DNA from: a phage
Length of the DNA stretch: 64,000 bases
NCBI GenBank assembly: GCA_011939005.1
Contig: GCA_011939005.1_4858.1
Direction: 5' to 3' (one strand)
Shown: in pieces, positions 22,920-42,261 of the stretch
How the letters are laid out: every line of letters begins with the position of its first letter
Position numbering within the stretch: the stretch's first letter is position 1
Translations under genes and position numbers: made by a program
Notes under the pieces: model-generated
What the model saw: the letters and a program-made list of their open reading frames with translations, nothing else
Database searches by the model: none
What the model was told of the DNA's origin: nothing

Positions 22920-23447
22920 TTAAACGAATCCGTCCAGTTCACCGTTGGTGGTACTCAGGTCAGTTTTAACGATTGGCTGCGTTACAGTATAAACTGCAAG
23001 GCTGGCAGGCTGGTATTTAATGTGGCCTTCTTTCACCTTAACAGTGATGATTTTCTCACCACTGTCGCCGTCCTCGCGTGTAATGGTGAGTTCAGACAAT
23101 GCAAACGCATCTTCCGTTTTACCGGCAGCAATTAGATCTGCGTTGACAAAAGCAAGCACTTCTTCATCGGTATCCCATTCTGCCTGGTCAGCGGTAACTG
23201 CTTTCGCACCGATGATGTTCAATGAATCGAGGCGGGTATAATGCAGCTCTTTCTCGCCAGTAAAGTTAGCGGATTCCGCGGTGGCAGTGATGGTGAGTTT
23301 GGAGTTGCGATGGTCTCCAGAATCTGCTGGTGAATAGTCAGCAACAGCGCCGAATGTAACGTCAGCAGAAGTTAACGGACTAGACAGTCCGCTGTTTGCA
23401 GCATTAAACAGCGCAACGAGTTGGTCTTTTGCAGAGATGACTGCCAT
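22920..23447 (-). CDS. fiber-like protein, short member of the N-domain paralog family, C-terminal NGELDGF motif
   Basis: Internal ATG with RBS AAGGAAA; N-terminus resembles the 36982-43059 array; ends TNGELDGFV. Confidence 0.5.
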   Translation of the reverse strand: MAVISAKDQLVALFNAANSGLSSPLTSADVTFGAVADYSPADSGDHRNSKLTITATAESANFTGEKELHYTRLDSLNIIGAKAVTADQAEWDTDEEVLAFVNADLIAAGKTEDAFALSELTITREDGDSGEKIITVKVKEGHIKYQPASLAVYTVTQPIVKTDLSTTNGELDGFV

Positions 23448-23571
23448 GGTTGTTTCCTTATAGTAGGTTTGTGGTGCATACCAAATCATTCTAAAAAATA
23501 CATAGTGGGGTTAATATGACAGTAAAGTTGGCTGTTAAACGAGAAAGTTTTTACCACTGAAAGGATACCTT

Positions 23572-24063
23572 ATGAAACGTCTATTTATCGTATTCGCGAT
23601 TATAAACCTGTTGGTCGGTTGTGTTCAGTCGCCAAACAACATCGGGCAATTTAGCGCCACGCCAGTAAAGAATCACGACTTGGTGATTTATACATGCACA
23701 GGAACGCAGGAGAAGTTTGTAGACTACCGTCCGGTTCTGGACAACCTACAAATGATGCCGCGGTCAGTAACAGTATTGGATGTGGGTGCAAGCTGGGTAG
23801 CAACGTGGGACGGTGGCAAACTTGAGTCACCGATGATGTTTAAAGATACAATTGGCAAAATCGACGGGAATGTTAACACCACCACAGGTGAGCGTTATTA
23901 CCGTATTAATAAAACCGTAAACGATAGCCCCACTTACTCTTTTTCGGATGTGAACCCGTATACCGGCGAAGGTAAAGGGATGACATTCTTTCGCTGCAGC
24001 AGCGGGTTTATCGGTGAAGTTCCTACCCCGATTACGATTGTTCCGTTAGAAGAAAATAAATAA
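23572..24063 (+). CDS. predicted lipoprotein (163 aa)
   Basis: N-terminal signal peptide with lipobox (LLVGC); followed by GNRA-loop terminator. Confidence 0.6.
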   Translation: MKRLFIVFAIINLLVGCVQSPNNIGQFSATPVKNHDLVIYTCTGTQEKFVDYRPVLDNLQMMPRSVTVLDVGASWVATWDGGKLESPMMFKDTIGKIDGNVNTTTGERYYRINKTVNDSPTYSFSDVNPYTGEGKGMTFFRCSSGFIGEVPTPITIVPLEENK

Positions 24064-24110
24064 TGCTTACCCACTCCCGTAAGGGGAGTGGGTAAGGGCT
24101 TTATTTACCC
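24064..24110 (+). terminator. rho-independent terminator
   Basis: Stem TTACCCACTCCC / GGGAGTGGGTAA with GTAA loop, then T-rich tract. Confidence 0.7.
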
Positions 24111-24188
24111 TCTAAAACGCTCTGTAACGCTCTCTAAGCGCATTAAACGTATCAAATGATAAATGATATTACTTTTGATTAAAGTGGC

Positions 24189-24704
24189 TTAGATTTTAAC
24201 TAGCTTGCTCCAATCGATGGGTTGTTGCTTAACCACTTTAACGGTACCACGTGTCGGTGACCAGAAGGTGATATCAGGCTGGTTGCGTACGTCAACATGC
24301 AGCCAGGTAATATCGCACTCGATAAAGTGAATAAATGGAAACTCGTCAGGGTTCGCGGCAATATAATCGTGCACTTTCTGCAACGGAGTATCAAGCATTG
24401 TTGCATCAAACGCATTACCGAATTTATGCATACTGCCTGATTCGGCGTACAGTTTGTTTGCACGAGTTTGCCAATCGCCACCCTTTGGTTTCTCTTGATT
24501 AATAAAGAACTGCAGGGTACGCAGACTACGCTGTTGCTGGGAACTGGTTAAAATCACCATCCGCCCAAAACGATTACGAATCTGTTGGAGCGAGATTAGC
24601 AGTAACGGATTAAGGAAACGAATAGCACCTTCACCGTATTTCGCGATGTACTCCTGCGGCATCAACTCTTTTAACGCGAAGTTGGCAGGATTCGGATGAA
24701 ACAT
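24189..24704 (-). CDS. peptidase M15-like zinc peptidoglycan peptidase (171 aa), putative
   Basis: Motifs S-M-H-K-F-G-N-A-F-D (S.H..G.A.D) and W-L-H-V-D consistent with the His/Asp/His zinc site of M15/VanY-type cell-wall peptidases. Confidence 0.45.
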   Translation of the reverse strand: MFHPNPANFALKELMPQEYIAKYGEGAIRFLNPLLLISLQQIRNRFGRMVILTSSQQQRSLRTLQFFINQEKPKGGDWQTRANKLYAESGSMHKFGNAFDATMLDTPLQKVHDYIAANPDEFPFIHFIECDITWLHVDVRNQPDITFWSPTRGTVKVVKQQPIDWSKLVKI

Positions 24705-24713
24705 TTTCTCTCC

Positions 24714-25355
24714 TTAAGGGGTAGTCAGGAACGCGCGTTTGATATTCAAATACTGCACGTTTACCGGTTGCCCATTAGTAATGTCAACACGTTCGTGTTC
24801 AGGAATCGCTAACGTACGCGATGTTCTAAAGAACAGGTAGTTGCGATTATAGGACAACGTCTTTTCTACCGGCCGGCTATAAACCACCTTAGAGTTATCG
24901 TCTACATAGGACGGCCAACCAAACTCGTGAACGGCATGGTAGAAGGACTTACGAATAAAGGTGTCAACGCCTAATGCCTCCATGATGCGTAAGAACATCA
25001 AGTCAGCGAACGTTTTGTCACATGCACGAGATAGATTACCTTCAACGGTGTCAGGGTAAAAGCCTACCGATGAACGTTTCTGGTAAAACAAATCATGCAC
25101 ACAAGCGGCAGCGGCCCAAGGCCCATCCGGATGCAGGATAGGACGTAACGTTTCTGGAATGCTTGCCAGGTCCGTCACAAATCCTCTCGGTACCGTTACC
25201 CATAACGGGGTATCCGGATGCACACCTGCTAATGCTACCATCGCATCCATTCCGGTCTGTTCACGATAGAGGCTGCGCAACGTAAACTCGAAATGGAAAT
25301 CATCCGTGAGGATAAACCACGGCTTCTCTAACAACTTATACTTAAGTGCTTCCAT
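24714..25355 (-). CDS. DUF1353 domain protein (213 aa)
   Basis: GFVTDLASIP....HPDGPW....HD..Y pattern typical of DUF1353. Confidence 0.45.
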   Translation of the reverse strand: MEALKYKLLEKPWFILTDDFHFEFTLRSLYREQTGMDAMVALAGVHPDTPLWVTVPRGFVTDLASIPETLRPILHPDGPWAAAACVHDLFYQKRSSVGFYPDTVEGNLSRACDKTFADLMFLRIMEALGVDTFIRKSFYHAVHEFGWPSYVDDNSKVVYSRPVEKTLSYNRNYLFFRTSRTLAIPEHERVDITNGQPVNVQYLNIKRAFLTTP

Positions 25356-25643
25356 ACTGACCTCATGTCATATAACGCACGAGCATCGTGAGGACCATTA
25401 ATCCCAGTAAAATGGGCATTAAGCCTTTCGGCCAGTCGTCGTTGTCGTATTGCATGGCTTTACCCTCTGACAGAAGATCGTGCGTAATAGTTTGAAGAAC
25501 CCAGAATCGTAATACGTTTCCGGAACAGTTTGTACTTCGGGGAACTTAGGCGGAGTTGGACGGTGGGTCATTACGTTTTCTCCTTGCAGCAAAAACAAGG
25601 GCGCGCCAGATAGCTTTCATTAAGGCAGCAAACCAATTCTGTT

Positions 25644-26297
25644 TCATTTACACATCCCCAACTTAGCCACGTAGTCTGGCATTTCCTGATAGACGCGGCC
25701 ATACCAGCCGTAAGTAAACTCTTCGTTATCCTCACGCCCTTCACTGATTTCCGTGTAGTACGCTACCTGATGACAGGTTAAAGCGAATATCAGTCGATTT
25801 AGGCCCTCTTCCCCACGAGCTTTGATAAAGCCTTCTAACGCTGTTAACGTACGTGGTCCAATACCACCGTCGGCATCGATATCGTCGTACAGTTTACCCT
25901 GACGGTTTAATACGTTCAGAATGCGCTGCAGGGACTTGATACAGTTGCCACGACCTGCGTTGATGCCGAAATCAAACATCCGGTCAGCTAGCAGGACATT
26001 CATTTTCATAATCTGGTCTAAGCGCATCCGCTGCCACCAGAGCTTGTTGTAAATGTCTAACGCGGTTTCTAGGCTCAGGTCACGCATATCCCCTTTATAG
26101 CCATATTCACGCGCCGTGAGTTCGGTGACACCACGGTTCGTTGCTTTACCCAAATCTTTCGGGTTATTAACGTAACCGGCTTCGATGTTTACTTTGGCAC
26201 GAATAATGCCCTCTTTACTCCAACGATCGACCACGATAACCTCCTGCGTTGATAGGGTCATAAAAAGAAAGCCTCTTCCCCGTGGGGAAGAGGGCAT
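25644..26297 (-). CDS. endolysin: GH108-type muramidase with C-terminal peptidoglycan-binding domain
   Basis: EAGYVNNPKD.G..T..GVT...YGY.GDM motif (GH108) and DADGGIGPRTLTAL (PG_binding_3-like). Start ambiguous: M1 at 26297 or M13 at 26261, which sits immediately after a hairpin. Confidence 0.8.
   Translation of the reverse strand: MPSSPRGRGFLFMTLSTQEVIVVDRWSKEGIIRAKVNIEAGYVNNPKDLGKATNRGVTELTAREYGYKGDMRDLSLETALDIYNKLWWQRMRLDQIMKMNVLLADRMFDFGINAGRGNCIKSLQRILNVLNRQGKLYDDIDADGGIGPRTLTALEGFIKARGEEGLNRLIFALTCHQVAYYTEISEGREDNEEFTYGWYGRVYQEMPDYVAKLGMCK
26268..26296 (-). terminator. hairpin terminator after the 722-aa gene, overlapping the possible 5' end of the endolysin gene
   Basis: Stem CCTCTTCCCC / GGGGAAGAGG, T-run on minus strand. 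Confidence 0.5.
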
Positions 26298-26348
26298 GGG
26301 TTATTCTCAGGCTTTAACCCCGTCAAGTTCCTCGTTAAATTATGATAA

Positions 26349-28517
26349 CTATTTCTTTGGCCGCACCCACGGTTTAGGGGCGGATTTGGTATACGGATTA
26401 CATTCCATCATCTTACCGAGGTAGGCATCGTAATACACGAAGCGATCGACATAGAACTTCTCCACCGGTGCACTACTGGTAGCCGATTTCACCCGGTTGC
26501 GTTCCACAGCGAGGCTAATCGCCCCGGTAGGTGCGGGTTTTAGCGTGAACATTACCGCGCGGTTGTAACGCCAAGTGTCGTGCACAATATCAAACTCCGA
26601 TACACAGTGTGCCATGATACCAAACAATGTGGTGGCTGGTAAGTTGGCTACAGCATCGCCGTATGGTGTTCCCACCAAACCGCCGGGTATGTTTTGCTTT
26701 TTGAACAGCGTACCTGAAATAATCGTACCTAAGAACTCCACAACTACAGGCTTGGTTGGGTCGGTGACTTTATCTATCCCATCCGCACTGGCCAATCGGT
26801 TGGCATCTAAATCTGCGAGGTAGTCGAGGAACTCTTGGTACTCGTCGGTAACATTCGGTTTCACCGTTCCGACGGATACCCAGTTGACGATACTTTTATT
26901 CCCACCGACAGCTTCGCCTGCCATCCCAGGGCGAGTCCATGACATCCCGTCTTCACGACCGTAGACATAGACTGGCGAGCCGGTAGCCGGGGTGTTCCAT
27001 TGCTCGAACGCTGTATATCGTCCCGGCTGGCCCCAATCCCCACCCGGACCGCCATAGTAGCGACTCTGGTAGCCGGTAAATTGCGCGACGACTAACTGGG
27101 TAGCACCGCCTTTGTCACGGGACCCAGCTAAGCCGTTACGGTTATTGGTGCCGCTGGGCACCGCCGCGCCTGGCCCGAGAGGCGCACCACCAGCTCCACC
27201 GATCTTGGTGGTGCTAAACGCATAGTAGTCGCCCCCACCCCCACCACCGGCGATGGTGCCGTAGTTTTCGATGGTGACTTTGCCACGGAAGGTATCGCTA
27301 ATGTGGATTGCGTCAGCTCCGTCCGCTGATGTGTTCGCAGGCATAGAGTAGACCACACCCGAACCACCACGACCAAGAATGGTTCCCCGGTTAACGAAGT
27401 TCCAAACCACCTCGCCAATTTGCGGCAATTCGTCGATAACGAACGTCGGTTTCAGGTTGCTGTCGCGATAAACGAAAGCCCCCGCATCTACGGTCACGTT
27501 AACAAACAAACGCCCGCACGCCGCATGGTTGGTCAACGTTGTGGCCCAGTAGCTGTCCGAAAGTTGCGACGTAGTTGTGTAGTTCAGGTTAAGGGTTTGC
27601 TCGTTATCTTGATAGCGTGCTACATTCAACGTGGCACTGCCCATGACTTTGTACGAACCCTCTACGGGTGCCAATTGCACTTGTCTCGGCCACTCGCCTG
27701 CCAGGTTCTCTACAGGAGCAATTTCGTTTACATCAAAAACACTCCGAATGCCGAGTGTCTCGATGGCCAGAGCATCGTGCAGGCTACCGGTGAAATCATC
27801 CGGGACGTATGTGGTTTTGCCTGCATATGTCTCGAGTTTGTTACGTGAGAAGAACACATACTTCGTTCCAAACATCCCGCTCCCCGGTCTAGCGGTCAAA
27901 GCTACGACGCTGTTATACGCAGAGGTTTGGCCTATATCCTCCGGGGACATCGGGGCGCTGACATCGACTTTATCAAGATCCACGATCCGTTTGGTTGCAT
28001 TAGAGTAGAAGTTAATCCACTGCTGCTTATTCGCAGCCTTTAGCGTGAAAATGATATTGGTAACAGTGTAGACAGTGTTGATATCCACGTCACCGTTTAT
28101 CACATCTAGCGTTTGGCTGCCGTACCAGATAAGACTTGTCTGTTTCGCCTGGAACGTGATGCGCGCAGCATTGTTTGTCCAAGTGATGGGCAGGTCTTCA
28201 AAGTCGTCGGTTAAAAAGGTAATCCCTAGTAGAGTGTCTAAATGCGGCAACAGTTCGTGGATGGACGCACAAGTGGGAATGGCATCCAACTTAACCTTGG
28301 CGAAATAATCAGCAATATTTTGCTTCGTGACTTGGGCCGTAATTTGACCGTAACTAGAATACCCCGGACCCCCTGTCAGTGTGACGTCTAGGGTTTTTTC
28401 GTCACGATGCGCCACGGACACCAGGCGTACGTTAGCGGGGTCTACTGCTTTGGCGACCGCGTTTTTACGGTTGAGCGACCGAATCACGGTCGCCACTAAA
28501 TCGGGAGTGTATGACAT
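26349..28517 (-). CDS. fiber-like protein (722 aa) with Gly-rich region; N-domain paralog family
   Basis: RBS AAGG; N-terminal module resembles the array genes; poly-Gly/GGxGG segment. Confidence 0.6.
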   Translation of the reverse strand: MSYTPDLVATVIRSLNRKNAVAKAVDPANVRLVSVAHRDEKTLDVTLTGGPGYSSYGQITAQVTKQNIADYFAKVKLDAIPTCASIHELLPHLDTLLGITFLTDDFEDLPITWTNNAARITFQAKQTSLIWYGSQTLDVINGDVDINTVYTVTNIIFTLKAANKQQWINFYSNATKRIVDLDKVDVSAPMSPEDIGQTSAYNSVVALTARPGSGMFGTKYVFFSRNKLETYAGKTTYVPDDFTGSLHDALAIETLGIRSVFDVNEIAPVENLAGEWPRQVQLAPVEGSYKVMGSATLNVARYQDNEQTLNLNYTTTSQLSDSYWATTLTNHAACGRLFVNVTVDAGAFVYRDSNLKPTFVIDELPQIGEVVWNFVNRGTILGRGGSGVVYSMPANTSADGADAIHISDTFRGKVTIENYGTIAGGGGGGDYYAFSTTKIGGAGGAPLGPGAAVPSGTNNRNGLAGSRDKGGATQLVVAQFTGYQSRYYGGPGGDWGQPGRYTAFEQWNTPATGSPVYVYGREDGMSWTRPGMAGEAVGGNKSIVNWVSVGTVKPNVTDEYQEFLDYLADLDANRLASADGIDKVTDPTKPVVVEFLGTIISGTLFKKQNIPGGLVGTPYGDAVANLPATTLFGIMAHCVSEFDIVHDTWRYNRAVMFTLKPAPTGAISLAVERNRVKSATSSAPVEKFYVDRFVYYDAYLGKMMECNPYTKSAPKPWVRPKK

Positions 28518-28531
28518 GGTGACACCTTAGT

Positions 28532-29851
28532 CTATAGCGCTGGATACCAAGGGACCGGGGCAGTTTTGCTATATGGACTGTAGACCATATAGCCGCCTTT
28601 GCTTGGGTCGTAATAGATGAAATAGTTACAGTAATTCGAGTAGAGGCTCGTCATTTGTTTGGATTGGTATCCGTTACGGTATAGTCCCTGGTAAGTAGTA
28701 GCTGATGTCGTGGTGGTGTAAGCAGTGTGGTACAGTACCCGACGTCGGTTAGCAATACTTTCTTGGAACATCTCTTCGGTCGGAAACGCGTGTTGCATCA
28801 GCCGTCGAATACTCCCGGTACAGTATCGAGTGCCATACGGGGAACCCGTTAAATCATCCGCAGTTTCAGGCGATTCTGCCCGAGTCAACACGTACTCGTT
28901 TTGATACAACGTGACGCTCATCGAATTTGGGCTGGTTTCCCGGAAACTCATGTAACGCGCATAACGTTCGACGTCCTCTTCCTGCGCCAAATAGGCCACG
29001 TTATTTTTCGGACCAAAGTGCAAGAAGAACGGACGGCGGAGATTACCCATATCCTCAGGTGGCGTCAACTTCACGCAGTAATTGTACTCCCCACGCATAT
29101 CAGGGTCTAAGCCTGGGTTGTTATTGCGTGTAGCGACATACCCATAGAGGTCATACGGGTTATCAGTAGCAGCATTACCGATAGTGAACGGGATGCCCGA
29201 CCATGCCGACAGCGCCGCGATGAACTGGGTCATGTACGAGTTACTGTTTAGTCGCAGCGGGGTACCCATCTGGATATTGATTATCTGTTGGGTGTACATG
29301 CTCCAGTCGAGTCGATAGACCGTGCTGTAAACATCCATGGGTTCCCAAGCTCCGGTTTCGGTGGTGTGGTACAAGTCGGCAAAGCTGGGCTCTTCACGAA
29401 TAAAGCTAATAGGAATGTGACCCGTGAATGCGGGGTTATCCGATTTAATCGCCACCGTCCGATCGCCCGTTGCCACAGTGATCATTGCAAACTGGCTGTC
29501 AGGATACGTTAAATCGTCAGCAGTAAGCACCAGCCCACAAGCTGCGGAAATCCGGTCGATGATGTCGCGGTAGACCGTCGCCCGATAAGGTACTTTAACC
29601 GGTACGCTGACGCCTTTAAAATACTGCGAAAGGTTTAAGCGGTCGTAGTAGATGTCCATCTTACCGCTGTAACCACCACCCTGTAATCCGTTTACCACGA
29701 TACGGCTGTTGCGACCATCGCGCAAGGCATTGGTTAAAGGACCTTGTAATAACGCCACGTTGGTTGCGTTGAGCGGTTTCTTGAGCTGCGGGTTATCACG
29801 ATTAATCTGATCCCAAACCAGTTGCATGACAGGTTTGTTATAGTTGATCAT
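28532..29851 (-). CDS. fiber-like protein (439 aa), N-domain paralog
   Basis: Starts MINYNKP..L..QINRDNP, VYYDRLNL motif shared by family. Confidence 0.6.
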   Translation of the reverse strand: MINYNKPVMQLVWDQINRDNPQLKKPLNATNVALLQGPLTNALRDGRNSRIVVNGLQGGGYSGKMDIYYDRLNLSQYFKGVSVPVKVPYRATVYRDIIDRISAACGLVLTADDLTYPDSQFAMITVATGDRTVAIKSDNPAFTGHIPISFIREEPSFADLYHTTETGAWEPMDVYSTVYRLDWSMYTQQIINIQMGTPLRLNSNSYMTQFIAALSAWSGIPFTIGNAATDNPYDLYGYVATRNNNPGLDPDMRGEYNYCVKLTPPEDMGNLRRPFFLHFGPKNNVAYLAQEEDVERYARYMSFRETSPNSMSVTLYQNEYVLTRAESPETADDLTGSPYGTRYCTGSIRRLMQHAFPTEEMFQESIANRRRVLYHTAYTTTTSATTYQGLYRNGYQSKQMTSLYSNYCNYFIYYDPSKGGYMVYSPYSKTAPVPWYPAL

Positions 29852-29861
29852 TGCAACGTCC

Positions 29862-29895
29862 TAAAAAAGAAAATAGGCCCCGAAGGGCCTATTTT
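29862..29895 (-). terminator. rho-independent terminator (UUCG-type loop)
   Basis: Stem AGGCCC / GGGCCT around a 4-nt loop, T-run on minus strand. Confidence 0.6.
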
Positions 29896-30086
29896 TAGCT
29901 GTTATGGTGAAGTACGCTATCCCTTTAACTCCAGCTGCTTCGACGTCAGTTTGGATAACCACGCGGCCGTACGCTTTATTAGCGAAATTGAATCAGCGCT
30001 GATTCGACCTGCGAGTTCAGGGTTATCCCTTACGACTTGTTGGCAGAGCAGTTCCAGTGCGCTATACAATCCCATGAAGTCTCCTG

Positions 30087-30986
30087 TTAAGGCAGAACGA
30101 GTTCAAGTACCGCGATAGAACGTATTGTATTGGTTTCGTATCTACCGTACGACGGCGACTCTGGGTAGGGTGGACGGTTGTACCACTGATTGTAAATGTC
30201 AGACATAGCCGCAAAGAATGCAGATTGTTGGGCAGTAGTCGAATCGATTGAACCGACCGGAAGGTCGTCAAAGCGCGGCAACTGCCCACTGTAGTTGTAC
30301 AGGCGCGCGAAAGTGTTAAACCACTCACCGTCGAGATACAACTCACTGTTACCGCTTCTAACGTTAGTCGTCCAGAATCTGTAGTCGAACAAATACGGCA
30401 AGCGCACCACGTATTCGTAACCGTTCTTCGCCACCGTGCGGCGTTGGTTACGTGCAGTGGCCCAGCTCGGTACAAATCCATTGCCATCCTGGCCGTACAT
30501 CAGCCCCTGGTTATAAATGAACTGCGGGCTAGCGTATATTATCGAGTTATCGGACATAAACAGAATACGGTTTTTGTAAATGAATTTATGCCAGGCACCA
30601 ACGGCGGAACTGAACATATTCACCACGAGGCTGTTCAGTTCCGCGTTAGTGAATAACTCTGCTGGCGTTACTGTTCCAAAGTATCCAGCGTGCCAGTCGC
30701 CGTATAACAGCTTCTGGGGGCCAGGCCCGGTGTCTAAAAAGAACCCTTGGGCGGTAGGGGTGTTGAAGACACGCTCACCGTCTTTAACCGCAGCTATCCA
30801 ATAACGGTAAGTGGTGTTGTTTTCCACAGCGTTGTCTTCGTACGATGTAGCGTCACCCGGAAGGGTTGCCAGAGGCGTTCCCGGTGCATTAACATCAATG
30901 GTGGCGTTGCCCGGCGTCTTGCGATAGATTTCAATGTTATCGAGCGCCTGTGGCTTCCGTTGTGCAAAGTTTAATGTAATAGGCAT
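30087..30986 (-). CDS. fiber-like protein (about 300 aa): FN3-like N-module plus GPGP module
   Basis: Internal ATG overlaps stop of upstream gene; TTYRYW..AVKDGER and DTGPGPQ motifs. Confidence 0.55.
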   Translation of the reverse strand: MPITLNFAQRKPQALDNIEIYRKTPGNATIDVNAPGTPLATLPGDATSYEDNAVENNTTYRYWIAAVKDGERVFNTPTAQGFFLDTGPGPQKLLYGDWHAGYFGTVTPAELFTNAELNSLVVNMFSSAVGAWHKFIYKNRILFMSDNSIIYASPQFIYNQGLMYGQDGNGFVPSWATARNQRRTVAKNGYEYVVRLPYLFDYRFWTTNVRSGNSELYLDGEWFNTFARLYNYSGQLPRFDDLPVGSIDSTTAQQSAFFAAMSDIYNQWYNRPPYPESPSYGRYETNTIRSIAVLELVLP

Positions 30987-30988
30987 GA

Positions 30989-31978
30989 TTAATCCTCGAT
31001 AAGCTCGATTACTGGAATCCAAATACCGCCCACGGTCGCACCAGGGACATGTTGTATACGCTGGAGGTTATCCACGGTATCAGTGGAATCCGTCGTCGCT
31101 GTTCCGCGCGTCAGCCCCAACTTACGGTCTGGGTCAAACTCCTGACAATGCACCCCACGGCCACTCACCACCGATCCATTTCCGAATATGCTGATGTTCG
31201 ACCGCGTTAACAGGGACATCACTTTTTTCTTTGCTGGGAACCAGGTACTTATCCCATAGATGAGTCGGTTGTATTCGCTATCGGCAGTATACGGTGACAC
31301 GTCATGGATTTTTCCGTCCCACTGTGCATCGAGCGCCATGACCGGACTTTCACTGTCGTGTGTTAAACCGCGCAGCAATCGCATCCGATAGCGGTCACCC
31401 AACCACGTAAACTCCCCAGACTGGTCAACGTCAGGTAAATCACCATGACCGCCTTCCGGACCAGGTCCCGCCACACCGTACAGCAAACCCGCGTTATAAA
31501 TCGCATCACGGCTATACAGCGTGTTGCCGTTCACACGAAGACCACTAAGCAGATACAGAATTTTACCGTCTAGCTGGAACTTAAACAAGTACAGCTTAAC
31601 AGTTGGGTCAATTCCAGAAAGGGCCACAAACCCTGGCGGATAATCACCCACGCTAGGCAATTCATCGTACGCCACATTCCCGTAATACGCAAAGCGGTCA
31701 TCACCGTACTGTGGAGTCACGATGCCGATACCGCGACGGTTCTGAATCAGAATTGATTTCTGCGGACTGAACAGTGTCCGGCTTCCCACTGTCACGGTGG
31801 TCATGTAGTAATACGTTGTCCCCAGTATCGCTGTTCGGTCAGTATACTCAGTTTCCCCGTTAGTGAACGTTGCCAGAGGTTCAGGTAATGCCGTACGCAC
31901 CAGAGGTTTGGTGTCGCGGTACAGCTTCACGGTCGAAGCCCCAGGGTTATTGTTCGTCCAACGAATTGTAAAAGCCAT
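30989..31978 (-). CDS. fiber-like protein (329 aa): FN3-like N-module plus GPGPEGGHG module
   Basis: Starts MAFTIRW; paralog of 34434-35432. Confidence 0.55.
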   Translation of the reverse strand: MAFTIRWTNNNPGASTVKLYRDTKPLVRTALPEPLATFTNGETEYTDRTAILGTTYYYMTTVTVGSRTLFSPQKSILIQNRRGIGIVTPQYGDDRFAYYGNVAYDELPSVGDYPPGFVALSGIDPTVKLYLFKFQLDGKILYLLSGLRVNGNTLYSRDAIYNAGLLYGVAGPGPEGGHGDLPDVDQSGEFTWLGDRYRMRLLRGLTHDSESPVMALDAQWDGKIHDVSPYTADSEYNRLIYGISTWFPAKKKVMSLLTRSNISIFGNGSVVSGRGVHCQEFDPDRKLGLTRGTATTDSTDTVDNLQRIQHVPGATVGGIWIPVIELIED

Positions 31979-31990
31979 TGTCGTTACCTC

Positions 31991-33487
31991 TTATTGGAAT
32001 CCATCCAACTCACCGTTAGTATCGCCCAGAGTAATTTTTGAAGGTTGGGCGATTTGGTCAGTCGTGAGAATAATCGGTCTAATCTTAACGCTAGCCATGC
32101 CTGTTACCGCGACGGAATATGCACGTTCATCATTGTCCGTCGTGGCAAGCAGAGGACGTGGTGAGTCTGATGACGCTTCCCGTACCCAGGCAGGGGTGGC
32201 AGTTTCGGTGTTGTCGGTGTTGAAAACTAACGGACGTGGATTCGCTGCAGCGGAGGTTTCCGTAATCGGCACCACACGAAGCGATTCATTTTGGTCGATG
32301 TCCGTCAGAGTAACCACGGACGGTGCCCATGTTAGTTCTGCACCTTCGTCAATCAACGGCACAGGTTCATTGGCAACATCAATCATCTCCAAGATTGGCC
32401 AAAAGCCAGAAGAGGTGTAGATGTAGGTGTATGAACGATAGCTCCCACTGATAGACTGGTAATACGCTTGGTCGGCACCGAACTGGTGTCGTAACCACAC
32501 GTAATCCAGGAAGTTAGCATCAGTCGTGCTAAGAGTTCCCCATTCCCCATATACGTTCACCGACCCCAATTTGCTGGTCAGTGACAGGATAGAGGTGATT
32601 GACGGCGGTTTACTCCAATCAGGCGCGGCGGCGTTCTCGGTGTAATACGGGATAGACATTCTGAAATAATGCGTTCCTTCATCATCCCGTTTTACCATGT
32701 ATTTCAACTGTTCAACATCGACAGGTGTGTAAGTCGACTTCGGGCGAGGTCCTGCGTCTCCGGAATCAAATATTGCACCCTTGTTGTACAGGTCTGCCCA
32801 GGTAACGTTGCAAATCGCACGGGTCGGAACAAACACTACCGCCCCATTCAGAAAGAATTTGAGCCACTTGATAGCGTAGCGGTTAGGCCAGTTGGTGCCG
32901 TTATAGAGGGCATACACCATTTCATCAGATGTGAATAACTCTTCCGCGCTTACCAGCCCAAAAAATCCGTATAACTCATTACCGGCCATTAATCCTTTTG
33001 GCCCAGGGCCCGACTTCGGATACATCGCAATCGGTTCGTAAACATAGGTCATCTTGCATGACCCGGTATAGCACAAGGAGTTAGCGTGCGCCGTCAGAGT
33101 TACAGTTTCTGGCGTAGCGTATTTCATTAATGCAACGTTTGGACTGGTGATGTCACTCGCGGTTAAGTTCAACCCGTTCAATTCATTGAACGCCGGTAAC
33201 GCTTCCGCATGGGTTTGTGCGCTACGTGGAATACTCACCATCTTCGGGCCAGACTTGAACAGACTGGCCAGATTCAACCGGTCGTAATAGACCGTTATTT
33301 CCCCAGCAAATCCTTTACCGGGTTTACCTACCAACGTAATCTGTGTGTTTCGTCCGTTAACGTTTTTCGCAACAGGAACACCCCTGACCCCAATGGAGTC
33401 AGCGGTGATTTTTCCTGCTAAACCGGGATTGTCACGCACAATTTGTTGGCAGAGCAGTTCCATTGAAGGTTCTGTATACAACCCCAT
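31991..33487 (-). CDS. fiber-like protein (498 aa): N-domain, GPGP module, C-terminal NGELDGF
   Basis: RBS GGAG; VYYDRLNL, SGPGPKGL, ends TNGELDGFQ. Confidence 0.6.
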   Translation of the reverse strand: MGLYTEPSMELLCQQIVRDNPGLAGKITADSIGVRGVPVAKNVNGRNTQITLVGKPGKGFAGEITVYYDRLNLASLFKSGPKMVSIPRSAQTHAEALPAFNELNGLNLTASDITSPNVALMKYATPETVTLTAHANSLCYTGSCKMTYVYEPIAMYPKSGPGPKGLMAGNELYGFFGLVSAEELFTSDEMVYALYNGTNWPNRYAIKWLKFFLNGAVVFVPTRAICNVTWADLYNKGAIFDSGDAGPRPKSTYTPVDVEQLKYMVKRDDEGTHYFRMSIPYYTENAAAPDWSKPPSITSILSLTSKLGSVNVYGEWGTLSTTDANFLDYVWLRHQFGADQAYYQSISGSYRSYTYIYTSSGFWPILEMIDVANEPVPLIDEGAELTWAPSVVTLTDIDQNESLRVVPITETSAAANPRPLVFNTDNTETATPAWVREASSDSPRPLLATTDNDERAYSVAVTGMASVKIRPIILTTDQIAQPSKITLGDTNGELDGFQ

Positions 33488-33500
33488 GGCTTTTACTCCG

Positions 33501-34424
33501 TTACGGTAAGACTAATTCAAAAGCAAAGAATATCGTGGCCGAGTTCCCGACACCTGCGGTGTTACTAATCACCATAGGCACGGTGCCATACGCATAAGCG
33601 AATATGTTGTTGCTCCACAAAGGAGCTAATACAGCGGCACCTGACTCATTCGGCTGCACAGTCGCGCCTTGTCTTGCAAGTGAGTCAATCGCACCAAGAC
33701 CGAGGGCTGCGAACTGTGCACCGACAGGATACAAACGGCCCATTGTGTTTCGCCATTCACCGTTGTTGTAATCCTGTCCTGAGAGAACAGCGTCGTACGG
33801 GACTGCGTAAGGTAATCGGATACGGTACGTACGACCATCCTTCGTGACCTTACAATCTTGTTTAGTCGCCGTGGCTCCCTGCGGAACAATACTTCCGACA
33901 TCATCGGTCCCGTACATCATACCGTACTGATACGCCATTTGTACCGAGTTGGTTTTCGAATGCATCGTCGCTGGGAAGAAGACAATTCTCCCACGGAAAA
34001 TAAACTTGTGCCATTCCTGAGGGTCGTAGACAAACATGTTTCCCTGCTGTGCAGTCAACATAAGCTTCAGCTCGGCGGTATTAAAGAACTCGGTATTCGG
34101 TACTGTACCGAAATAACCTGAAGCCCAGTCACCACGCAAAATAGTTTGCGGACCCGGCCCGGTGTCCGGATAGAATCCTTGCGTAATCGGATTGCCGATA
34201 AGTCGTTCACTGTCCTTCACAGCAGCTACCCAATAACGATAGGTTGTATTCTTCGTCAGAGTATCGATATTATCTACGAACTCTACCGCGTTGCCCGATA
34301 AAGTTGCGTGGGGTGTGCCTGGATTGTAAACGTCGATTGTTGCGTTCCAACCTTCCTTGCGGTAGATTTCAATCGCGGTAAGACCTTTGCTGGCTTGGGA
34401 CGGCCAGCTTAACCGTATAGTCAT
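33501..34424 (-). CDS. fiber-like protein (307 aa): FN3-like N-module plus GPGP module
   Basis: Starts MTIRLSW; TTYRYWVAAVKDSER; DTGPGPQ. Confidence 0.55.
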   Translation of the reverse strand: MTIRLSWPSQASKGLTAIEIYRKEGWNATIDVYNPGTPHATLSGNAVEFVDNIDTLTKNTTYRYWVAAVKDSERLIGNPITQGFYPDTGPGPQTILRGDWASGYFGTVPNTEFFNTAELKLMLTAQQGNMFVYDPQEWHKFIFRGRIVFFPATMHSKTNSVQMAYQYGMMYGTDDVGSIVPQGATATKQDCKVTKDGRTYRIRLPYAVPYDAVLSGQDYNNGEWRNTMGRLYPVGAQFAALGLGAIDSLARQGATVQPNESGAAVLAPLWSNNIFAYAYGTVPMVISNTAGVGNSATIFFAFELVLP

Positions 34425-34433
34425 GACTGCCCC

Positions 34434-35432
34434 TTACTCGACCAGTTCAAAGATAGGGTAGTAACGCCCTTTCGTGGTGGGTGATAAATAGTTTATACGC
34501 TGAATCGTGGATACGGGTGTTCCACCGGCATTGTTAAAAATGCCACGATGGACCACACGGTCTTCCGCGGTGTCGTGTTCCATACAGAGAACTCCGGCAC
34601 CGAAATACGTTGCCGAGGTTCCCAAATTAGCCTGCCCCAGATAAGTATAACTGTTCGCTGCCCAGTTAGCCCAACGCTGTTTCCTCGGCACCTCGTTAAC
34701 CATCGTGTAAAGTAAATCGTTATACTCACACGGGTTGGTTAGAGAAGCGATTTCATCGTGGGTTTTCCCATTGTAGTCAGCTACGAAAGGATACGCAGGA
34801 GACTCGCTAGACGTCGTCAGGCCGCGAGGAAGACGCATAATGTACGTATCCCCTTTGTGGACTATCTTAGCGTCTTGTGGAGTGGCCGGTAGCGTTCCAT
34901 GGCCGTTCTCTGGGCCAGCATCGCCCGTACCATAGACTAAACCAGCTTGATAGAGGGAAGCCCAGTCCACAGGCGTATTCGGGAACTGCGACGTGTTAGA
35001 TAGCATGTAATAGATCTTCCCGTTTCGGGTAAATTTATACAACGCCACACGATCGGTTAACAGGTTAGGGAACATCGCCAAAAATGCAGGTGGCATTTGC
35101 GACGGAAGCCACTGTTCGTCGTAAGGAACCTCACCCATAAACCCTAAACGGTCGTTGCCGTTTAGAATAGTCATTGGGCCTATCCCGCGTTTTACCTCAA
35201 TGGTATATTTCTGGCTAGACGACGCTACTGTTTTACCGTTGGCGGTTACCGTCAGAAGGTAATAATAGGTTGCGCCTGGTGTGGCGGTGGTATCACGCCA
35301 TTCTGTCTCGCCGTTTGAGAGCGTTGCAATCGGTTCAGGCAAAGCGCTTGGTGTGATATCTTTAACATCACGGTAGATTTTTACTACCGTAGAGATTACG
35401 TTTGGATTTTTCCAACGCAAAGTAAAAGACAT
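34434..35432 (-). CDS. fiber-like protein (332 aa): FN3-like N-module plus GPENGHG module
   Basis: Starts MSFTLRW; paralog of 30989-31978. Confidence 0.55.
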   Translation of the reverse strand: MSFTLRWKNPNVISTVVKIYRDVKDITPSALPEPIATLSNGETEWRDTTATPGATYYYLLTVTANGKTVASSSQKYTIEVKRGIGPMTILNGNDRLGFMGEVPYDEQWLPSQMPPAFLAMFPNLLTDRVALYKFTRNGKIYYMLSNTSQFPNTPVDWASLYQAGLVYGTGDAGPENGHGTLPATPQDAKIVHKGDTYIMRLPRGLTTSSESPAYPFVADYNGKTHDEIASLTNPCEYNDLLYTMVNEVPRKQRWANWAANSYTYLGQANLGTSATYFGAGVLCMEHDTAEDRVVHRGIFNNAGGTPVSTIQRINYLSPTTKGRYYPIFELVE

Positions 35433-35443
35433 AGATGATACCT

Positions 35444-36934
35444 CTACTTAAAGCCGTCCAGTTCACCGTTAAGAGACGTTAACGTTGTCTTGTCAGGGGG
35501 CGTATACATTTCAGCGGTAGCCGCAATAGGTTGAAAATCGACAGTCTTCGGCAGCATTAATGCAGGCGGATGCAGTGCGAAACTGTTTTCTGAAGTAACG
35601 GCCACAGGTTGAAAATCGACAGTCTTCGGCAGCATTAATGCAGGCGGATGCAGTGCGAAACTGTTTTCTGAAGTAACAACTACCGGTTCGAAATCGGTAG
35701 TATCTGGATTACCGAGCACCAACGGCTTGAGACTAAACGTGTTTTCTGCGGACACGCTGCACGGTTGGAGGCTGTAATCTACCGCGCCGTGGATATCTTC
35801 TAAGCCCAAGGTAACCGTGGACTTATCCACCAACTCCAGCACCGGGAACCAGTAGTAGTTGCCCGCACTCGATGATTTTTCTAAGTTTGTCCAACTTGCT
35901 CCAGACAACGTCGCCATGCGATGATTGGCGACGTTGGTGTTCAGTGTATCTTTCAATAAACAGAACAGCGTCCAGTAACTGTTAATCGGTTTGTCCCACG
36001 TTCCATTATACAGAAAGTTGAACATCTCAAACTCACTACCTGCTAACTCAGCGGCAGTTGGGGTGCCGCTGACGTATGGGTCTTTCCCGGCACTAGGTAG
36101 ACGAACGCGGAAGTAAAACCTTTTGTTGTCTGCGCCTGTAAAGCTAATGATGCGTCCCTGGTTAACGGGCGTCGCCGCAGGGTATTTACCATTATCATCT
36201 GTTCCGTAAACGAGTCCGTTTGTATATAACGTATTCCAGGAGATGGAGCTAGCGACAGGACTGATCGGAAGGTAAATAACCCTACCCTGGTAAAAGAACT
36301 TGTACCAACCTTCGGCACCAGAATGTACCGGTGGTAACGCACCGGCCGATATAGTGGCATTAAGAAGTTGAGAGTGTGTAAACAACTCTGCAATTGTGGT
36401 TGTTCCGAAATAACCCGCGATAGTGTTACCTTGCAGCAACGTTTTAGGGCCAGGTCCAGAATCGGGGTAAATTGCACCGCTCGGGACGGTATAACGTATC
36501 GTTAAGCTGCCTATAAACGCAGGGCAATTACCTGAGATATTTAATTTCAACGTCTGCGGCGAAGCGCTCGGTTTAGGTAAACTTGCGTCAGGTGACTGCA
36601 AATCAGAAGCAACTAATGTAAGCCCCAATGCGTCGTTTATTGCAGGTAGCGCGTCTCGTACCGTTAAGACTGTATCTTTGATAGCCACAGTCGGCACAAA
36701 ATTAAATAAAGTGGCCAGGTTAATCCGGTCGTAGTACACGGTAACATTACCTTGTACACCTGTCCCTGGATACCCGGTGAAAACAGCTTTGGTGTTACGT
36801 TGGTTTAACGTAACTGAAGTTGGGCCGCTGGTTAAAGCAGCGATAGCCGGTGTCAGCTTAACAACTAAATCAGGGTTATCCCGATTGACTTGGTCGTATA
36901 CAAGCAGTGCCGACTCCTTCGAGTAAAATAGCAT
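35444..36934 (-). CDS. fiber-like protein (496 aa): N-domain, GPGP module, internal 26-aa tandem repeats, C-terminal NGELDGF
   Basis: VYYDRINL; DSGPGPK; repeated KTVDFQPVAVTSENSFALHPPALMLP; ends NGELDGFK. Confidence 0.6.
   Translation of the reverse strand: MLFYSKESALLVYDQVNRDNPDLVVKLTPAIAALTSGPTSVTLNQRNTKAVFTGYPGTGVQGNVTVYYDRINLATLFNFVPTVAIKDTVLTVRDALPAINDALGLTLVASDLQSPDASLPKPSASPQTLKLNISGNCPAFIGSLTIRYTVPSGAIYPDSGPGPKTLLQGNTIAGYFGTTTIAELFTHSQLLNATISAGALPPVHSGAEGWYKFFYQGRVIYLPISPVASSISWNTLYTNGLVYGTDDNGKYPAATPVNQGRIISFTGADNKRFYFRVRLPSAGKDPYVSGTPTAAELAGSEFEMFNFLYNGTWDKPINSYWTLFCLLKDTLNTNVANHRMATLSGASWTNLEKSSSAGNYYWFPVLELVDKSTVTLGLEDIHGAVDYSLQPCSVSAENTFSLKPLVLGNPDTTDFEPVVVTSENSFALHPPALMLPKTVDFQPVAVTSENSFALHPPALMLPKTVDFQPIAATAEMYTPPDKTTLTSLNGELDGFK
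35524..35684 (-). repeat. 78-bp period tandem direct repeat inside the 496-aa gene
   Basis: Two copies identical over 71 nt (GGTTGAAAATCGACAGTCTTCGGCAGCATTAATGCAGGCGGATGCAGTGCGAAACTGTTTTCTGAAGTAAC), flanked by degenerate copies. Confidence 0.85.
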
Positions 36935-36981: not shown

Positions 36982-37809
36982 TTAGCTGTTATAGTGGTAG
37001 TACGCCACGCCTTTCACGCCTTCCTCATCGATGCCCGTTTGGACAACCACGCGGTCGTACGATTTGTTAGCGAACTGAGCGGTGGATGTCGGCACATCCT
37101 GAACGGTGTTGCTGTTCAGTGGCCCCGCGTAGTTCGGAATACCCAGGTCATCCAACACCTTACGCAATCCAGCCCACTGCGGTAGGCCAGAAGCATCTAC
37201 TGTCAGTAGGTTTTTATACGCGGTAAAGTCAATACCATACGTCAACAAATCAATACACTTCTTACCGAGAGACGGTGAAATAGGCTCTTGAATCGCATTC
37301 AAGACATCCGATTTCACCGAAGTGTCTAGTACCGGTAAACCACGGTTATAACGCAACGTCGCAGAACCGATATAAGCCGGAGATGTCGATAGCGCTACGA
37401 TGTTCTGTGTATTGGTGTAATTTGGGGTATTGGGACCCGCCAGTGGGAGGTTATAGATATCGATTGCAGAGAAGTTTACTCCGTAAGTATCCAAGAGCAC
37501 CGAAAAGGCTGAATGGAGGTTGGGCGCGTCAAACGTGACGAACTGCGCCTGGACAGAAGGACCCCACGGCAATAACCGCGCTAAGTTCACACGGTCGTAG
37601 TAAACGGTGATTGCGTCTCGAAATCCGGAACCCTGAATACCGCGCAAGCGTGCCGACGTATTGCGGTTGTTGGAAGCTGCATTAACGGGAACCTGTGTCA
37701 CTTTCTCCACGTAGCAGTTTGCCGGCGACGCTTTAATAGGTAGGTTTGGGTTATCCCGGTTAATGAGGTCAAAGACCAACTCGTTTGACGGCTTAGCATA
37801 GTTGATCAT
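36982..37809 (-). CDS. fiber-like protein (about 275 aa), N-domain paralog
   Basis: ATG at second codon of tracked ORF with GAGG RBS; starts MINYAKPSNELVFDLINRDNP. Confidence 0.55.
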   Translation of the reverse strand: MINYAKPSNELVFDLINRDNPNLPIKASPANCYVEKVTQVPVNAASNNRNTSARLRGIQGSGFRDAITVYYDRVNLARLLPWGPSVQAQFVTFDAPNLHSAFSVLLDTYGVNFSAIDIYNLPLAGPNTPNYTNTQNIVALSTSPAYIGSATLRYNRGLPVLDTSVKSDVLNAIQEPISPSLGKKCIDLLTYGIDFTAYKNLLTVDASGLPQWAGLRKVLDDLGIPNYAGPLNSNTVQDVPTSTAQFANKSYDRVVVQTGIDEEGVKGVAYYHYNS

Positions 37810-37812
37810 CAA

Positions 37813-38700
37813 TTATACCTCGCTTGGATCGTCCAGATCGTTGAACTGGAGATACAACGTTCCGACGATGGTGGTACAGGTAACAGGCAGTTTCAACGCC
37901 AGCACATACTTGTACTTCGCGTTTGTCGGCATTGCAACAGGGTCATTCAGACCAACACTGATAACCTCCGCGCCCGCCAAACCGTAGGAAGCGGAAGTGG
38001 TCGCTACCCATGCAGTACCCGTGATATCTTTCAGCAGGTTAACCATATCCGTTAACGGCTGTCCGGACAGAATACCCGGCTTGTATGCCAGCAGAGCATC
38101 TCGGTACTTAGTGAAGTTGTACGGGTAGGAATAAACCTCTGCAATGACCGCAGTAACATTTTCGGAACCCATCTGACCGTTCGGGTATTTCAGACCGGTC
38201 AGGACGTTAGTGGTGACTGCAGAGACTAACGACTCATCACCTTTCACGACTTTAAATGTCGCCTGTCCAACCCAACCGATAGACTCTGGATGTGCAACAA
38301 CACGCACAGTACCTTCGGTCTTATCACCGTTCCATTCGATATCTGCGTCCTGCAGGTCAGCTTCTTCCAGAACAAAACCGTAACGTTGGTTCAGTCCAGG
38401 AATGGCCGCATACAAGGTTTCGTTGGATGGGCCGATCGCCAACGTGTCACCGATCAGCACTAACAAGTCTTCGACTTTCATGCGGTTGTAGAAGACATTT
38501 TTCTTACCCGACCAGGTAGAGCCCGTTACCCCATCTGCCGTAATTTTAATTTGCGTGTTACGGTTAGTCAGCGTTTCCTTCTCCGTACCACGGATGTCCT
38601 TTGGCGAGGACCAGATGATGTCAGTCATCTTAACAGCAAGCGAGTTCTGTGCGTTCACTGCTGCCAACAGGACGTCTTTAGAAGGTTGATAAATAGCCAT
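37813..38700 (-). CDS. fiber-like protein (295 aa), N-domain paralog
   Basis: Contiguous with neighbours, no intergenic gap; family N-terminus. Confidence 0.55.
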   Translation of the reverse strand: MAIYQPSKDVLLAAVNAQNSLAVKMTDIIWSSPKDIRGTEKETLTNRNTQIKITADGVTGSTWSGKKNVFYNRMKVEDLLVLIGDTLAIGPSNETLYAAIPGLNQRYGFVLEEADLQDADIEWNGDKTEGTVRVVAHPESIGWVGQATFKVVKGDESLVSAVTTNVLTGLKYPNGQMGSENVTAVIAEVYSYPYNFTKYRDALLAYKPGILSGQPLTDMVNLLKDITGTAWVATTSASYGLAGAEVISVGLNDPVAMPTNAKYKYVLALKLPVTCTTIVGTLYLQFNDLDDPSEV

Positions 38701-38710
38701 TCGCTAATTC

Positions 38711-39550: not shown

Positions 39551-39569
39551 AATAGCCTCCTCGGCCAAA

Positions 39570-39612
39570 AAAGAAAGGAGTAGCCGGGAGGAGGATTTCC
39601 TCCTCCCAGCGA
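39570..39612 (-). terminator. hairpin, possible intra-operon terminator/attenuator
   Basis: Stem GGGAGGAGG / CCTCCTCCC with AAAT loop; T-run follows after a short spacer on minus strand. Confidence 0.45.
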
Positions 39613-39619
39613 GGCCTAA

Positions 39620-40531: not shown

Positions 40532-40552
40532 TCTTACTTCCTTTACTCAGGA

Positions 40553-41398: not shown

Positions 41399-41408
41399 GT
41401 CAAAATCC

Positions 41409-42251: not shown

Positions 42252-42261
42252 CTATACCCTC

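Follow-up and report, generated by a model that had tools for sequence, protein, structure and literature searches.

Proteins of the DUF7941 family are among the most abundant virion proteins of the chimallivirus Goslar, in which purified gp22 forms filaments in vitro and AlphaFold3 docks the linker, together with the C-terminal domain (CTD), of one subunit on the N-terminal domain (NTD) of the next (bioRxiv 10.64898/2026.04.21.720040). The predicted docking in trans includes Goslar gp23, the most abundant member, which consists of the NTD and linker only without a CTD. According to the same preprint, unexplained density in the outer baseplate of the chimallivirus phiKZ, next to the NTD modelled for gp127, can be filled by a heterodimer of gp126 and gp127. 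Its authors refer to the linker as disordered, name no motif and do not discuss SPN3US-like phages. In Salmonella phage SPN3US, "paralog family B" (gp83, gp138-154, gp160/161 and gp237) was defined by PSI-BLAST and assigned to the head, with function unknown; neither a C-terminal motif nor an assembly mechanism was described (PMC5105663, PMC5694885, PMC10052503). One of these papers names gp161 in its text and gp160 in its tables (PMC5694885). Here we describe a C-terminal tail, NGELDGF, that is shared by three proteins encoded in a 64,000-nucleotide stretch of phage DNA (GenBank assembly GCA_011939005.1, contig GCA_011939005.1_4858.1; hereafter the window) and that, judged from profile comparisons, is the DUF7941 connector, which forms the chain end where a CTD is missing. 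The motif is not mentioned in the literature that was searched.

Sequence identity between the window and SPN3US with its relatives (Seoulvirus, jumbo phages of 240 kb) is 96-98%, and the region concerned is a run of minus-strand genes. The three carriers and their tails are located as follows.

22920-23447, minus strand: small protein of 175 residues, orthologue of SPN3US gp160 (97% identical)
22923-22967, minus strand: putative terminal connector of the small protein, KTDLSTTNGELDGFV, near-invariant in 60+ orthologues
22926-22946, minus strand: NGELDGF copy, small protein ending ...KTDLSTTNGELDGFV and stop
31991-33487, minus strand: A2, 498 residues, orthologue of SPN3US gp148, comprising the NTD (33038-33487), the putative lectin-like cargo domain (32351-33037), the disordered spacer (32039-32350) and the putative terminal connector
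31994-32038, minus strand: putative terminal connector of A2, KITLGDTNGELDGFQ
31997-32017, minus strand: NGELDGF copy, A2 ending ...KITLGDTNGELDGFQ and stop
35444-36934, minus strand: A1, 496 residues, orthologue of SPN3US gp145, built in the same way as A2, with the spacer at ~35492-35809
35447-35491, minus strand: putative terminal connector of A1, KTTLTSLNGELDGFK
35450-35470, minus strand: NGELDGF copy, A1 ending ...KTTLTSLNGELDGFK and stop

The carriers are 96-98% identical to gp160, gp148 and gp145, and what has been published on the abundance, size and unprocessed state of the SPN3US proteins applies to them directly. The start of the small gene at 23447 (MAVIS...) matches all orthologues, and its product comprises the DUF7941 NTD of two spiralin-like modules (residues 1-160) followed by the terminal connector and nothing more.

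The repetition of the tail is real and far beyond chance. A six-frame search of the window yielded three exact matches to NGELDGF, all on the minus strand and each one residue before the stop codon, compared to 4.3e-5 matches expected from the residue frequencies of the window over 127,996 six-frame residues. The search confirmed what a sequence-only reading of the window had noticed, namely that three genes end in this peptide, and the gene coordinates in that reading were correct. Five of the 21 nucleotides that encode the motif vary between the copies, all synonymously (GAA/GAG, CTG/TTG, GAC/GAT, GGA/GGC and TTC/TTT), and the DNA flanking the three copies is unrelated and unalignable. The synonymous differences and unrelated flanks thus place conservation and selection at the level of the protein, rather than in a DNA element or a recent gene conversion.

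Beyond the motif first noticed, conservation extends over a longer block, K-[TI]-x-[LI]-x-x-x-[ND]-G-E-L-[DN]-G-F. Orthologues of the small protein occur in Salmonella, Erwinia and Cronobacter jumbo phages and in metagenomes, and nearly all of them, down to 45% identity, keep KTDLS[TA]T[ND]GEL[DN]GF followed by 0-9 variable residues. All homologues of the A-type proteins down to 28% identity end with the same block and 0-1 further residues. As 0-9 residues may follow the block, the tail is near-terminal but not strictly terminal. Within the A family, the mean pairwise identity of the NTD was 0.48, that of the cargo domain 0.35, that of the spacer, which also shows large indels, 0.22 and that of the 14-residue tail 0.58, so that the best-conserved segment of these proteins adjoins the least conserved one. 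The spacer of A1 contains a perfect tandem duplication of 78 bp (35528-35677, minus strand; 1.9 copies, 100% identical) that adds 26 residues (VVTSENSFALHPPALMLPKTVDFQP), giving 496 residues compared to 470 in SPN3US gp145 in which the duplication is absent. A change of this size between near-identical phages indicates that the tether tolerates variation in length. The spacer of the A-type proteins is not featureless: in the alignment (32039-32350 in the window) repeated PRPL-like elements are evident, such as ANPRPLVFNTDN, DSPRPLLATTDN and KIRPIILTTDQ, as well as one invariant proline ~25 residues before the tail. These elements could be additional short binding motifs.

The sequence-only reading had named two observations that would refute its interpretation, namely absence from orthologues in related phages and chance occurrence in unrelated proteins. 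Neither was found: the motif persists down to 28-45% identity, and in a scan of IMG/VR for TNGE[L/F]DGF all 10 TNGELDGF sites lie 1-4 residues from the C-termini of these two types of protein, most of them on contigs of jumbo-phage size (220-245 kb). A 107-kb IMG/VR contig (locus L018, 11666-12260) bears two tail-bearing small proteins in tandem, ending ...DLATTNGELDGFTA and ...DLSTTNGELDGFKPTE, and therefore the gp160-type unit is itself duplicated in some phages. The same scan returned 15 TNGEFDGF sites, all internal in proteins of ~300 residues, which were set aside as an unrelated look-alike. The context of the latter is W.G...TNGEFDGF, with leucine changed to phenylalanine and never at a C-terminus (loci L003, L005-L007, L009, L011, L014, L016, L017, L019-L024 and L026), and by this context the proteins look like capsid proteins.

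The carriers had been described as otherwise different, but all three possess the DUF7941 NTD and the two of ~497 residues are paralogues. Scores against the Pfam DUF7941 profile (PF25613) were 43.5, 105.3 and 110.6 bits relative to a cut-off of 27, the matches covering only profile positions 7-101 or 1-153 of 276. The NTD fold resembles that solved for phiKZ gp127 (9xqd), and by both sequence and fold this NTD is the one found in Goslar gp22/gp23 and phiKZ gp126/gp127, the head-to-tail oligomers of chimalliviruses. The full DUF7941 architecture, consisting of the NTD, the linker and, at the C-terminus, a globular domain that ends ...LHYN, is not present in any of the three as the CTD is missing. 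Thus, by sequence the carriers are truncated or rearranged members of the family. Seven complete members are encoded nearby, and one of them has the linker that is most like the tail.

36982-43059, minus strand: seven full-length DUF7941 paralogues (SPN3US gp144-gp138 orthologues), in all of which an internal connector joins the NTD to the CTD
39995-40039, minus strand: internal connector RLSLVVTQTKLDGLV of the gp141 orthologue (gene 39620-40531)

Alignment of the small-protein family with the seven full-length paralogues by hhalign was collinear over residues 1-174 (probability 96%, E 1e-9), and the tail KTDLSTTNGELDGFV fell on RLSLVVTQTKLDGLV, the linker that joins NTD and CTD in the gp141 orthologue. 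That linker has the form GERLSLV[IV]T.T[KEQ]LDGL.YPDG in nearly all of 46 aligned homologues. An exhaustive hidden Markov model (HMM) search of 1.84 billion representative proteins, which stand for clusters at 50% identity, produced only 147 matches to the small-family profile. Among these, 79 that were retrieved at 150-200 residues were taken as consisting of the NTD only, and in 55 of the 79 the final 16 residues include [LM][DNSTPG]G[FLYWM]. None of 1295 internal windows contains this pattern, and of the 109 long open reading frames of the window 3 do, which are the carriers themselves. SPN3US gp83 and gp237 were predicted beforehand to end in a connector, and they do (...ALDGFRPGEFLNG / ...KRALDGFRPGEFLNG and ...ELNGLVYDVSDMAQA / ...VTELNGLVYDVSDMAQA, respectively). 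Goslar gp23 ends ...KDQLATVLADNVADGFVKPTVSVVG / ...ADNVADGFVKPTVSVVG, with the chain stopping 8 residues after ADGF. In longer relatives the motif is located at residues ~160-180 directly after the NTD, and in natural fusions of two or three NTDs the connector lies between successive NTDs, 10-20 residues upstream of the first helix of the next NTD (for example ...LLDAIMDGFVYNNESPSW...LGQLRDLINAQN in P0181); some of the fused chains end right after the last connector. The fusions and the family-wide chain ends indicate that the repeating unit of the family is an NTD plus a connector, with the consensus [DN]-[LI]-x-x-x-x-x-x-[EK]-L-[DN]-G-[FL], and that the NGELDGF tail is the terminal connector. 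By the same sequence criteria, the A-type proteins are this unit with the cargo domain and the tether inserted between NTD and connector. The small protein, with 175 residues and an end one residue after ELDGF, is built as Goslar gp23, which is also an NTD plus linker of ~175-180 residues, is very abundant and ends shortly after ...ADGFV; the copy number in this comparison is the one published for gp160 (97% identical; PMC5694885). The Goslar cargo members gp86 and gp92 have the linker directly after the NTD and no terminal copy, whereas the A-type proteins of the window have the connector at the extreme C-terminus after the putative lectin-like domain and a tether of ~100 residues.

The exhaustive HMM search also returned surface proteins of Mycoplasma cottewii (for example WP_259429887.1), Mycoplasma yeatsii and Mesoplasma corruscae (for example WP_104207611.1), and one metagenomic repeat protein, with whole-library HMMER E-values of 2.5e-22 to 1e-6 summed over repeats. 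These Mollicutes-type proteins contain 4-22 tandem repeats of ~78 residues, and some are identified as Spiralin (PF05215) by Pfam. The 175-residue phage profile spans two repeats and the tail falls on the start of a third. In hhalign comparisons with an alignment of repeat units, residues 7-72 (probability 91.5%, E 9e-7) and residues 112-167 (probability 84.9%, E 6e-6) were matched independently, and in the second match KTDLSTTN fell on the first residues of the next unit. The elements occur in the same order in both, and the Mollicutes junction, KTD[IL]ST...EL/AG..[IF], differs very little from that of the phage tail (KTDLSTIATKELGDI compared to KTDLSTT-NGELDGF). The Mollicutes arrays open with a leading segment ahead of the first repeat and close without one behind the last, and the Pfam Spiralin model begins at the leading segment; the leading segment therefore belongs to the module that follows it. 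The phage NTD comprises two spiralin-like modules, each a helix plus strands. Module 2 has its own leading segment at residues ~76-93 (modelled as a strand at 80-85 and a turn at 88-91). Module 1 has none, as the chain starts ~7 residues before the helix and the alignment starts at repeat position ~20, and the chain ends with one extra, orphan leading segment, which is the connector. Whereas 4-22 modules are covalently linked on the Mollicutes cell surface, the phage chain has two modules and an orphan junction segment. Homology between the phage NTD and spiralin repeats is supported by these sequence comparisons but not proven.

Structures were predicted with AlphaFold2 (AF2) as single chains. 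The small protein gave a confident fold with a predicted local distance difference test (pLDDT) value of 93.4. Residues 1-379 of A2 were folded, and residues 380-498, which correspond to the spacer and tail, were predicted to be disordered with pLDDT values of 30-40.

On balance, we lean towards a reading in which the tail is a terminal plug for head-to-tail assembly, by which lectin-like domains are brought into the virion. Each subunit's orphan connector would dock on the NTD of the next, as in the mechanism proposed in the Goslar preprint and adopted here, and the resulting head-to-tail chains would be non-covalent imitations of the tandem arrays that the Mollicutes surface proteins form covalently. 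The gp160-type small protein would be the abundant, pure socket-plus-plug unit of the chain. The A-type proteins, of which there are two here and three in SPN3US, would be low-copy versions of the same unit that bear a C-type-lectin-like cargo and a disordered tether of ~100 residues between socket and plug. The assignment of the cargo domain of the A proteins as C-type-lectin-like is putative. In SPN3US, gp160 and gp141 are each present in >300 copies per virion, and gp145, gp148 and gp151 at about the level of the portal protein (SC/M 0.5-1.0) (PMC5694885). The shared tail would allow different cargo to plug into the same scaffold and, as the tails are identical, a single type of socket, probably the one on gp160 and/or gp141, would accept them all. 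The seven full-length paralogues are candidate sockets and co-polymerising partners. Of the functions suggested in the sequence-only reading, a shared docking site is thus the one that is favoured here, as the tail corresponds to the connector segment that is predicted to dock on the NTD of a neighbouring subunit. A more ambitious version, which we advance only tentatively and consider the less probable side of the question, is that DUF7941 proteins are "split" spiralin-type arrays that complete each other in trans to form long non-covalent fibres, that the ELDGF plug is a universal adaptor, and that virion proteins of nucleus-forming jumbo phages share an evolutionary link with the major surface proteins of Mollicutes.

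Short terminal segments have comparable roles elsewhere. In chaperone-usher pili, donor-strand complementation completes an incomplete subunit with a short extension of its neighbour and produces a polar non-covalent fibre. The phage proposal would share this logic of completion, as suggested by the lack of a leading segment in module 1 and the orphan segment at the chain end. The fold is unrelated, however, the donor segment would be C-terminal in the phage proteins and is N-terminal in pilins, and neither a chaperone nor an usher takes part in the phage proposal. The N-terminal tail of the adenovirus fibre (FNPVYPY) docks on the penton base, and in this system, too, receptor-binding proteins that otherwise vary are held in a common socket by a short, invariant peptide at one terminus. 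It differs in the terminus used, in the sequence and partner, which are unrelated, and in not polymerising.

Several observations weigh against the assignment of the tail as a connector that docks in trans. The docking is inferred, and the Goslar model that it follows is an AlphaFold prediction in a preprint. In a search with a 20-column HMM of the linker only, the tails were not significant (E = 1.8-17), although they ranked just below the true linkers with all three in one register; as this HMM is too short, the case for homology to the linker is made from the collinear profile alignment and the family-wide position rather than from the motif by itself. When the small family was aligned with the single Goslar gp23 sequence by hhalign, the match extended over the N-terminal part only, and therefore the similarity of the tail to the end of gp23 is by inspection. 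The small protein scored 19.7 bits (E 0.0012) against Pfam Spiralin (PF05215), which is below the curated cut-off of 25. The published locations of the family are contradictory. Mass spectrometry of SPN3US found the whole family retained on tailless heads, with head/wild-type ratios of 1.2-1.35 for gp160 and gp145, and designated its members as head proteins (PMC5694885, PMC10052503). In the cryo-electron microscopy atlas of phiKZ, gp127 is in the outer baseplate at the tip of the "star lobe" (PMC13250141, PDB 9xqd), and baseplate-anchored fibres forming a "fibre cloud" are proposed for Goslar (bioRxiv 10.64898/2026.04.21.720040). The description of the carriers of this phage as fiber-like is thus plausible but contested, between tailless heads and baseplate rim. 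The tail of the small protein was modelled with pLDDT values of 81-89 in the AF2 monomer, which could mean that it packs in cis.

The last observation leads to the main rival, in which the connector folds back on module 1 of its own NTD, supplies the leading segment that this module lacks, and is conserved for folding or stability. The cargo domain and tether of the A-type proteins would then be a large loop inserted in one closed domain. A closed two-fold packing of the modules would put the chain end beside the empty site of module 1, and the pattern in which every NTD is followed by a connector fits a cap in cis as well as it fits docking in trans. However, the modelled tail of the small protein (residues 161-175) was assigned by DSSP as coil/HHH and does not have the strand-plus-turn of its module-2 equivalent (E80-85/H88-91), the A-type tail is undocked in the monomer model with pLDDT below 40, and in the open, linear Mollicutes arrays the segment is part of the repeat that comes after it. 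The polymerisation of Goslar gp22 in vitro and the AlphaFold3 placement of the linker in trans also speak against a closed monomer. We regard the cap in cis as a serious alternative, albeit an unlikely one. An improbable reading is that the tail is a signal for incorporation into the virion or head that is recognized by a partner outside DUF7941, for instance a protein of the capsid, the scaffold or the baseplate. A disordered tether that ends in a conserved peptide has the layout of a short linear motif, and the SPN3US family-B proteins, including gp160, gp145 and gp148, are all on tailless heads. Yet the exact tail is present on only 4 of the ~20 SPN3US family-B virion proteins, all of which are incorporated, and no candidate receptor was identified. 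Moreover, the same segment is found internally, where it joins the NTD to the CTD or one fused NTD to the next, and its role is thereby tied to the domains of the family itself.

The sequence-only reading had also suggested a processing or chaperone-recognition site. On such a view the tail would be cleaved during maturation or bound by a chaperone of assembly, for which the DUF1353 protein encoded nearby would be an example; both parts are very improbable. The C-terminal position of the tail and the presence of a gene annotated as a tail assembly chaperone at 24714-25355 are compatible with this proposal, but nothing otherwise favours recognition by a chaperone. The SPN3US prohead protease gp245 cuts after A-x-E whereas the tail has N-G-E, the 14 cleavage sites mapped by mass spectrometry lie in 9 proteins among which the family-B orthologues are not listed, and supplementary tables record unprocessed masses (18.5 kDa for gp160 in gel slice 1; 51-54 kDa for gp145 and gp148 in slice 6). 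The SPN3US proteomics supplements hold no peptide lists in which the C-terminal tryptic peptide TDLSTTNGELDGFV could be sought, and retention of the tail is deduced from masses and gel slices only. With 0-9 residues after the motif there is nothing substantial to remove, and neither a Peptidase_S74 domain nor another intramolecular chaperone of the type found at the C-termini of tail spikes and fibres was detected by Pfam in the carriers. Finally, we give practically no credence to a feature of the DNA, such as a regulatory element, a recombination hotspot or a recent gene conversion, whose coding for the same peptide would be incidental. All three sites adjoin intergenic regions, two of them being followed by similar start regions of paralogous B genes, but the peptide persists in proteins that are 28-45% identical overall, and the explanation was rejected on the synonymous variation and unalignable flanks noted above.

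Beyond the carriers, the A-type proteins have a modular genomic setting. A1 and A2 are paralogues with 30% identity, and each heads a tandem cassette of three genes, A-B-C, whose products share one domain of ~220 residues (phrog_1062 matches). The partner genes within 30087-35432 encode the cargo domain of the A proteins without the DUF7941 NTD and without the tail, and have no Pfam match.

34434-35432, minus strand: B1
33501-34424, minus strand: C1
30989-31978, minus strand: B2
30087-30986, minus strand: C2

SPN3US has a third large-type copy and fourth carrier, gp151, which ends ...KTDLATANGELNGF with zero residues after the phenylalanine. Comparison of the window (28532-31022) with locus L001 (5230-11032) revealed two A-B-C cassettes versus three in SPN3US, with gp151-gp153 absent, and a relative, MET_P1_082_240, spans 6,990 bp for a query of 4,944 bp. 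The number of cassettes thus varies among phages that are 96-98% identical. A search for related loci with a single A-type protein returned SPN3US alone. Several GenBank records of Salmonella phage SPFM contain scrambled versions of these genes, with the same peptides in shuffled blocks and up to 40 BLAST pieces per record (proteins P0060, P0063-P0069, P0072-P0076, P0085 and P0091-P0094). They look like assembly artefacts and are unfit as evidence for loss of the tail.

Further DUF7941 matches in the window are at 28532-29851, 26349-28517 and 50790-51323, and other genes lie between the fibre-like cluster and the gp160 orthologue.

26349-28517: gp155 orthologue of 722 residues, with a DUF7941 NTD and a glycine-rich domain that matches the T-even Gp38 tail-fibre adhesin
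50790-51323, minus strand: DUF7941 protein consisting of the NTD only, 177 residues with the divergent end ...DDAVLTYGDDV (63.5 bits, profile positions 4-162)
48631-50790: protein of 719 residues with no Pfam match, whose start is overlapped by the stop of the 177-residue protein
25644-26297: endolysin-like gene
24714-25355: DUF1353 protein, annotated in RefSeq as a tail assembly chaperone
24189-24704: weakly Peptidase_M15-like protein

The glycine-rich domain of the gp155 orthologue was recognized by Pfam (PF05268, E 7e-18) and by phrog ("tail fiber protein; host specificity"), and by these matches the protein is likely to be a receptor-binding member of the DUF7941 family. The 177-residue protein may be the family-B candidate "gp122" of SPN3US.

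A family of disputed function and location takes up ~20 genes of SPN3US-like phages and is present in hundreds of copies per particle. The present analysis adds the DUF7941 connector as a putative terminal, tethered plug on proteins with putative lectin domains, an explicit motif for it and a possible origin in spiralin repeats. The 14-residue connector with its two invariant hydrophobic anchors offers a precise handle on both the function and the location of DUF7941. If confirmed structurally, the Mollicutes match would provide the first relatives of the family outside phages. If the plug-and-socket mechanism is true, it would explain why the number of cargo cassettes varies between near-identical phages: an ELDGF plug on gp160, gp145, gp148 and gp151 would, in a split-array arrangement, let lectin-type host-recognition cassettes be swapped, duplicated or lost while the scaffold is untouched. 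The mechanism would also suggest a route by which new binding domains could be grafted onto jumbo-phage virions.

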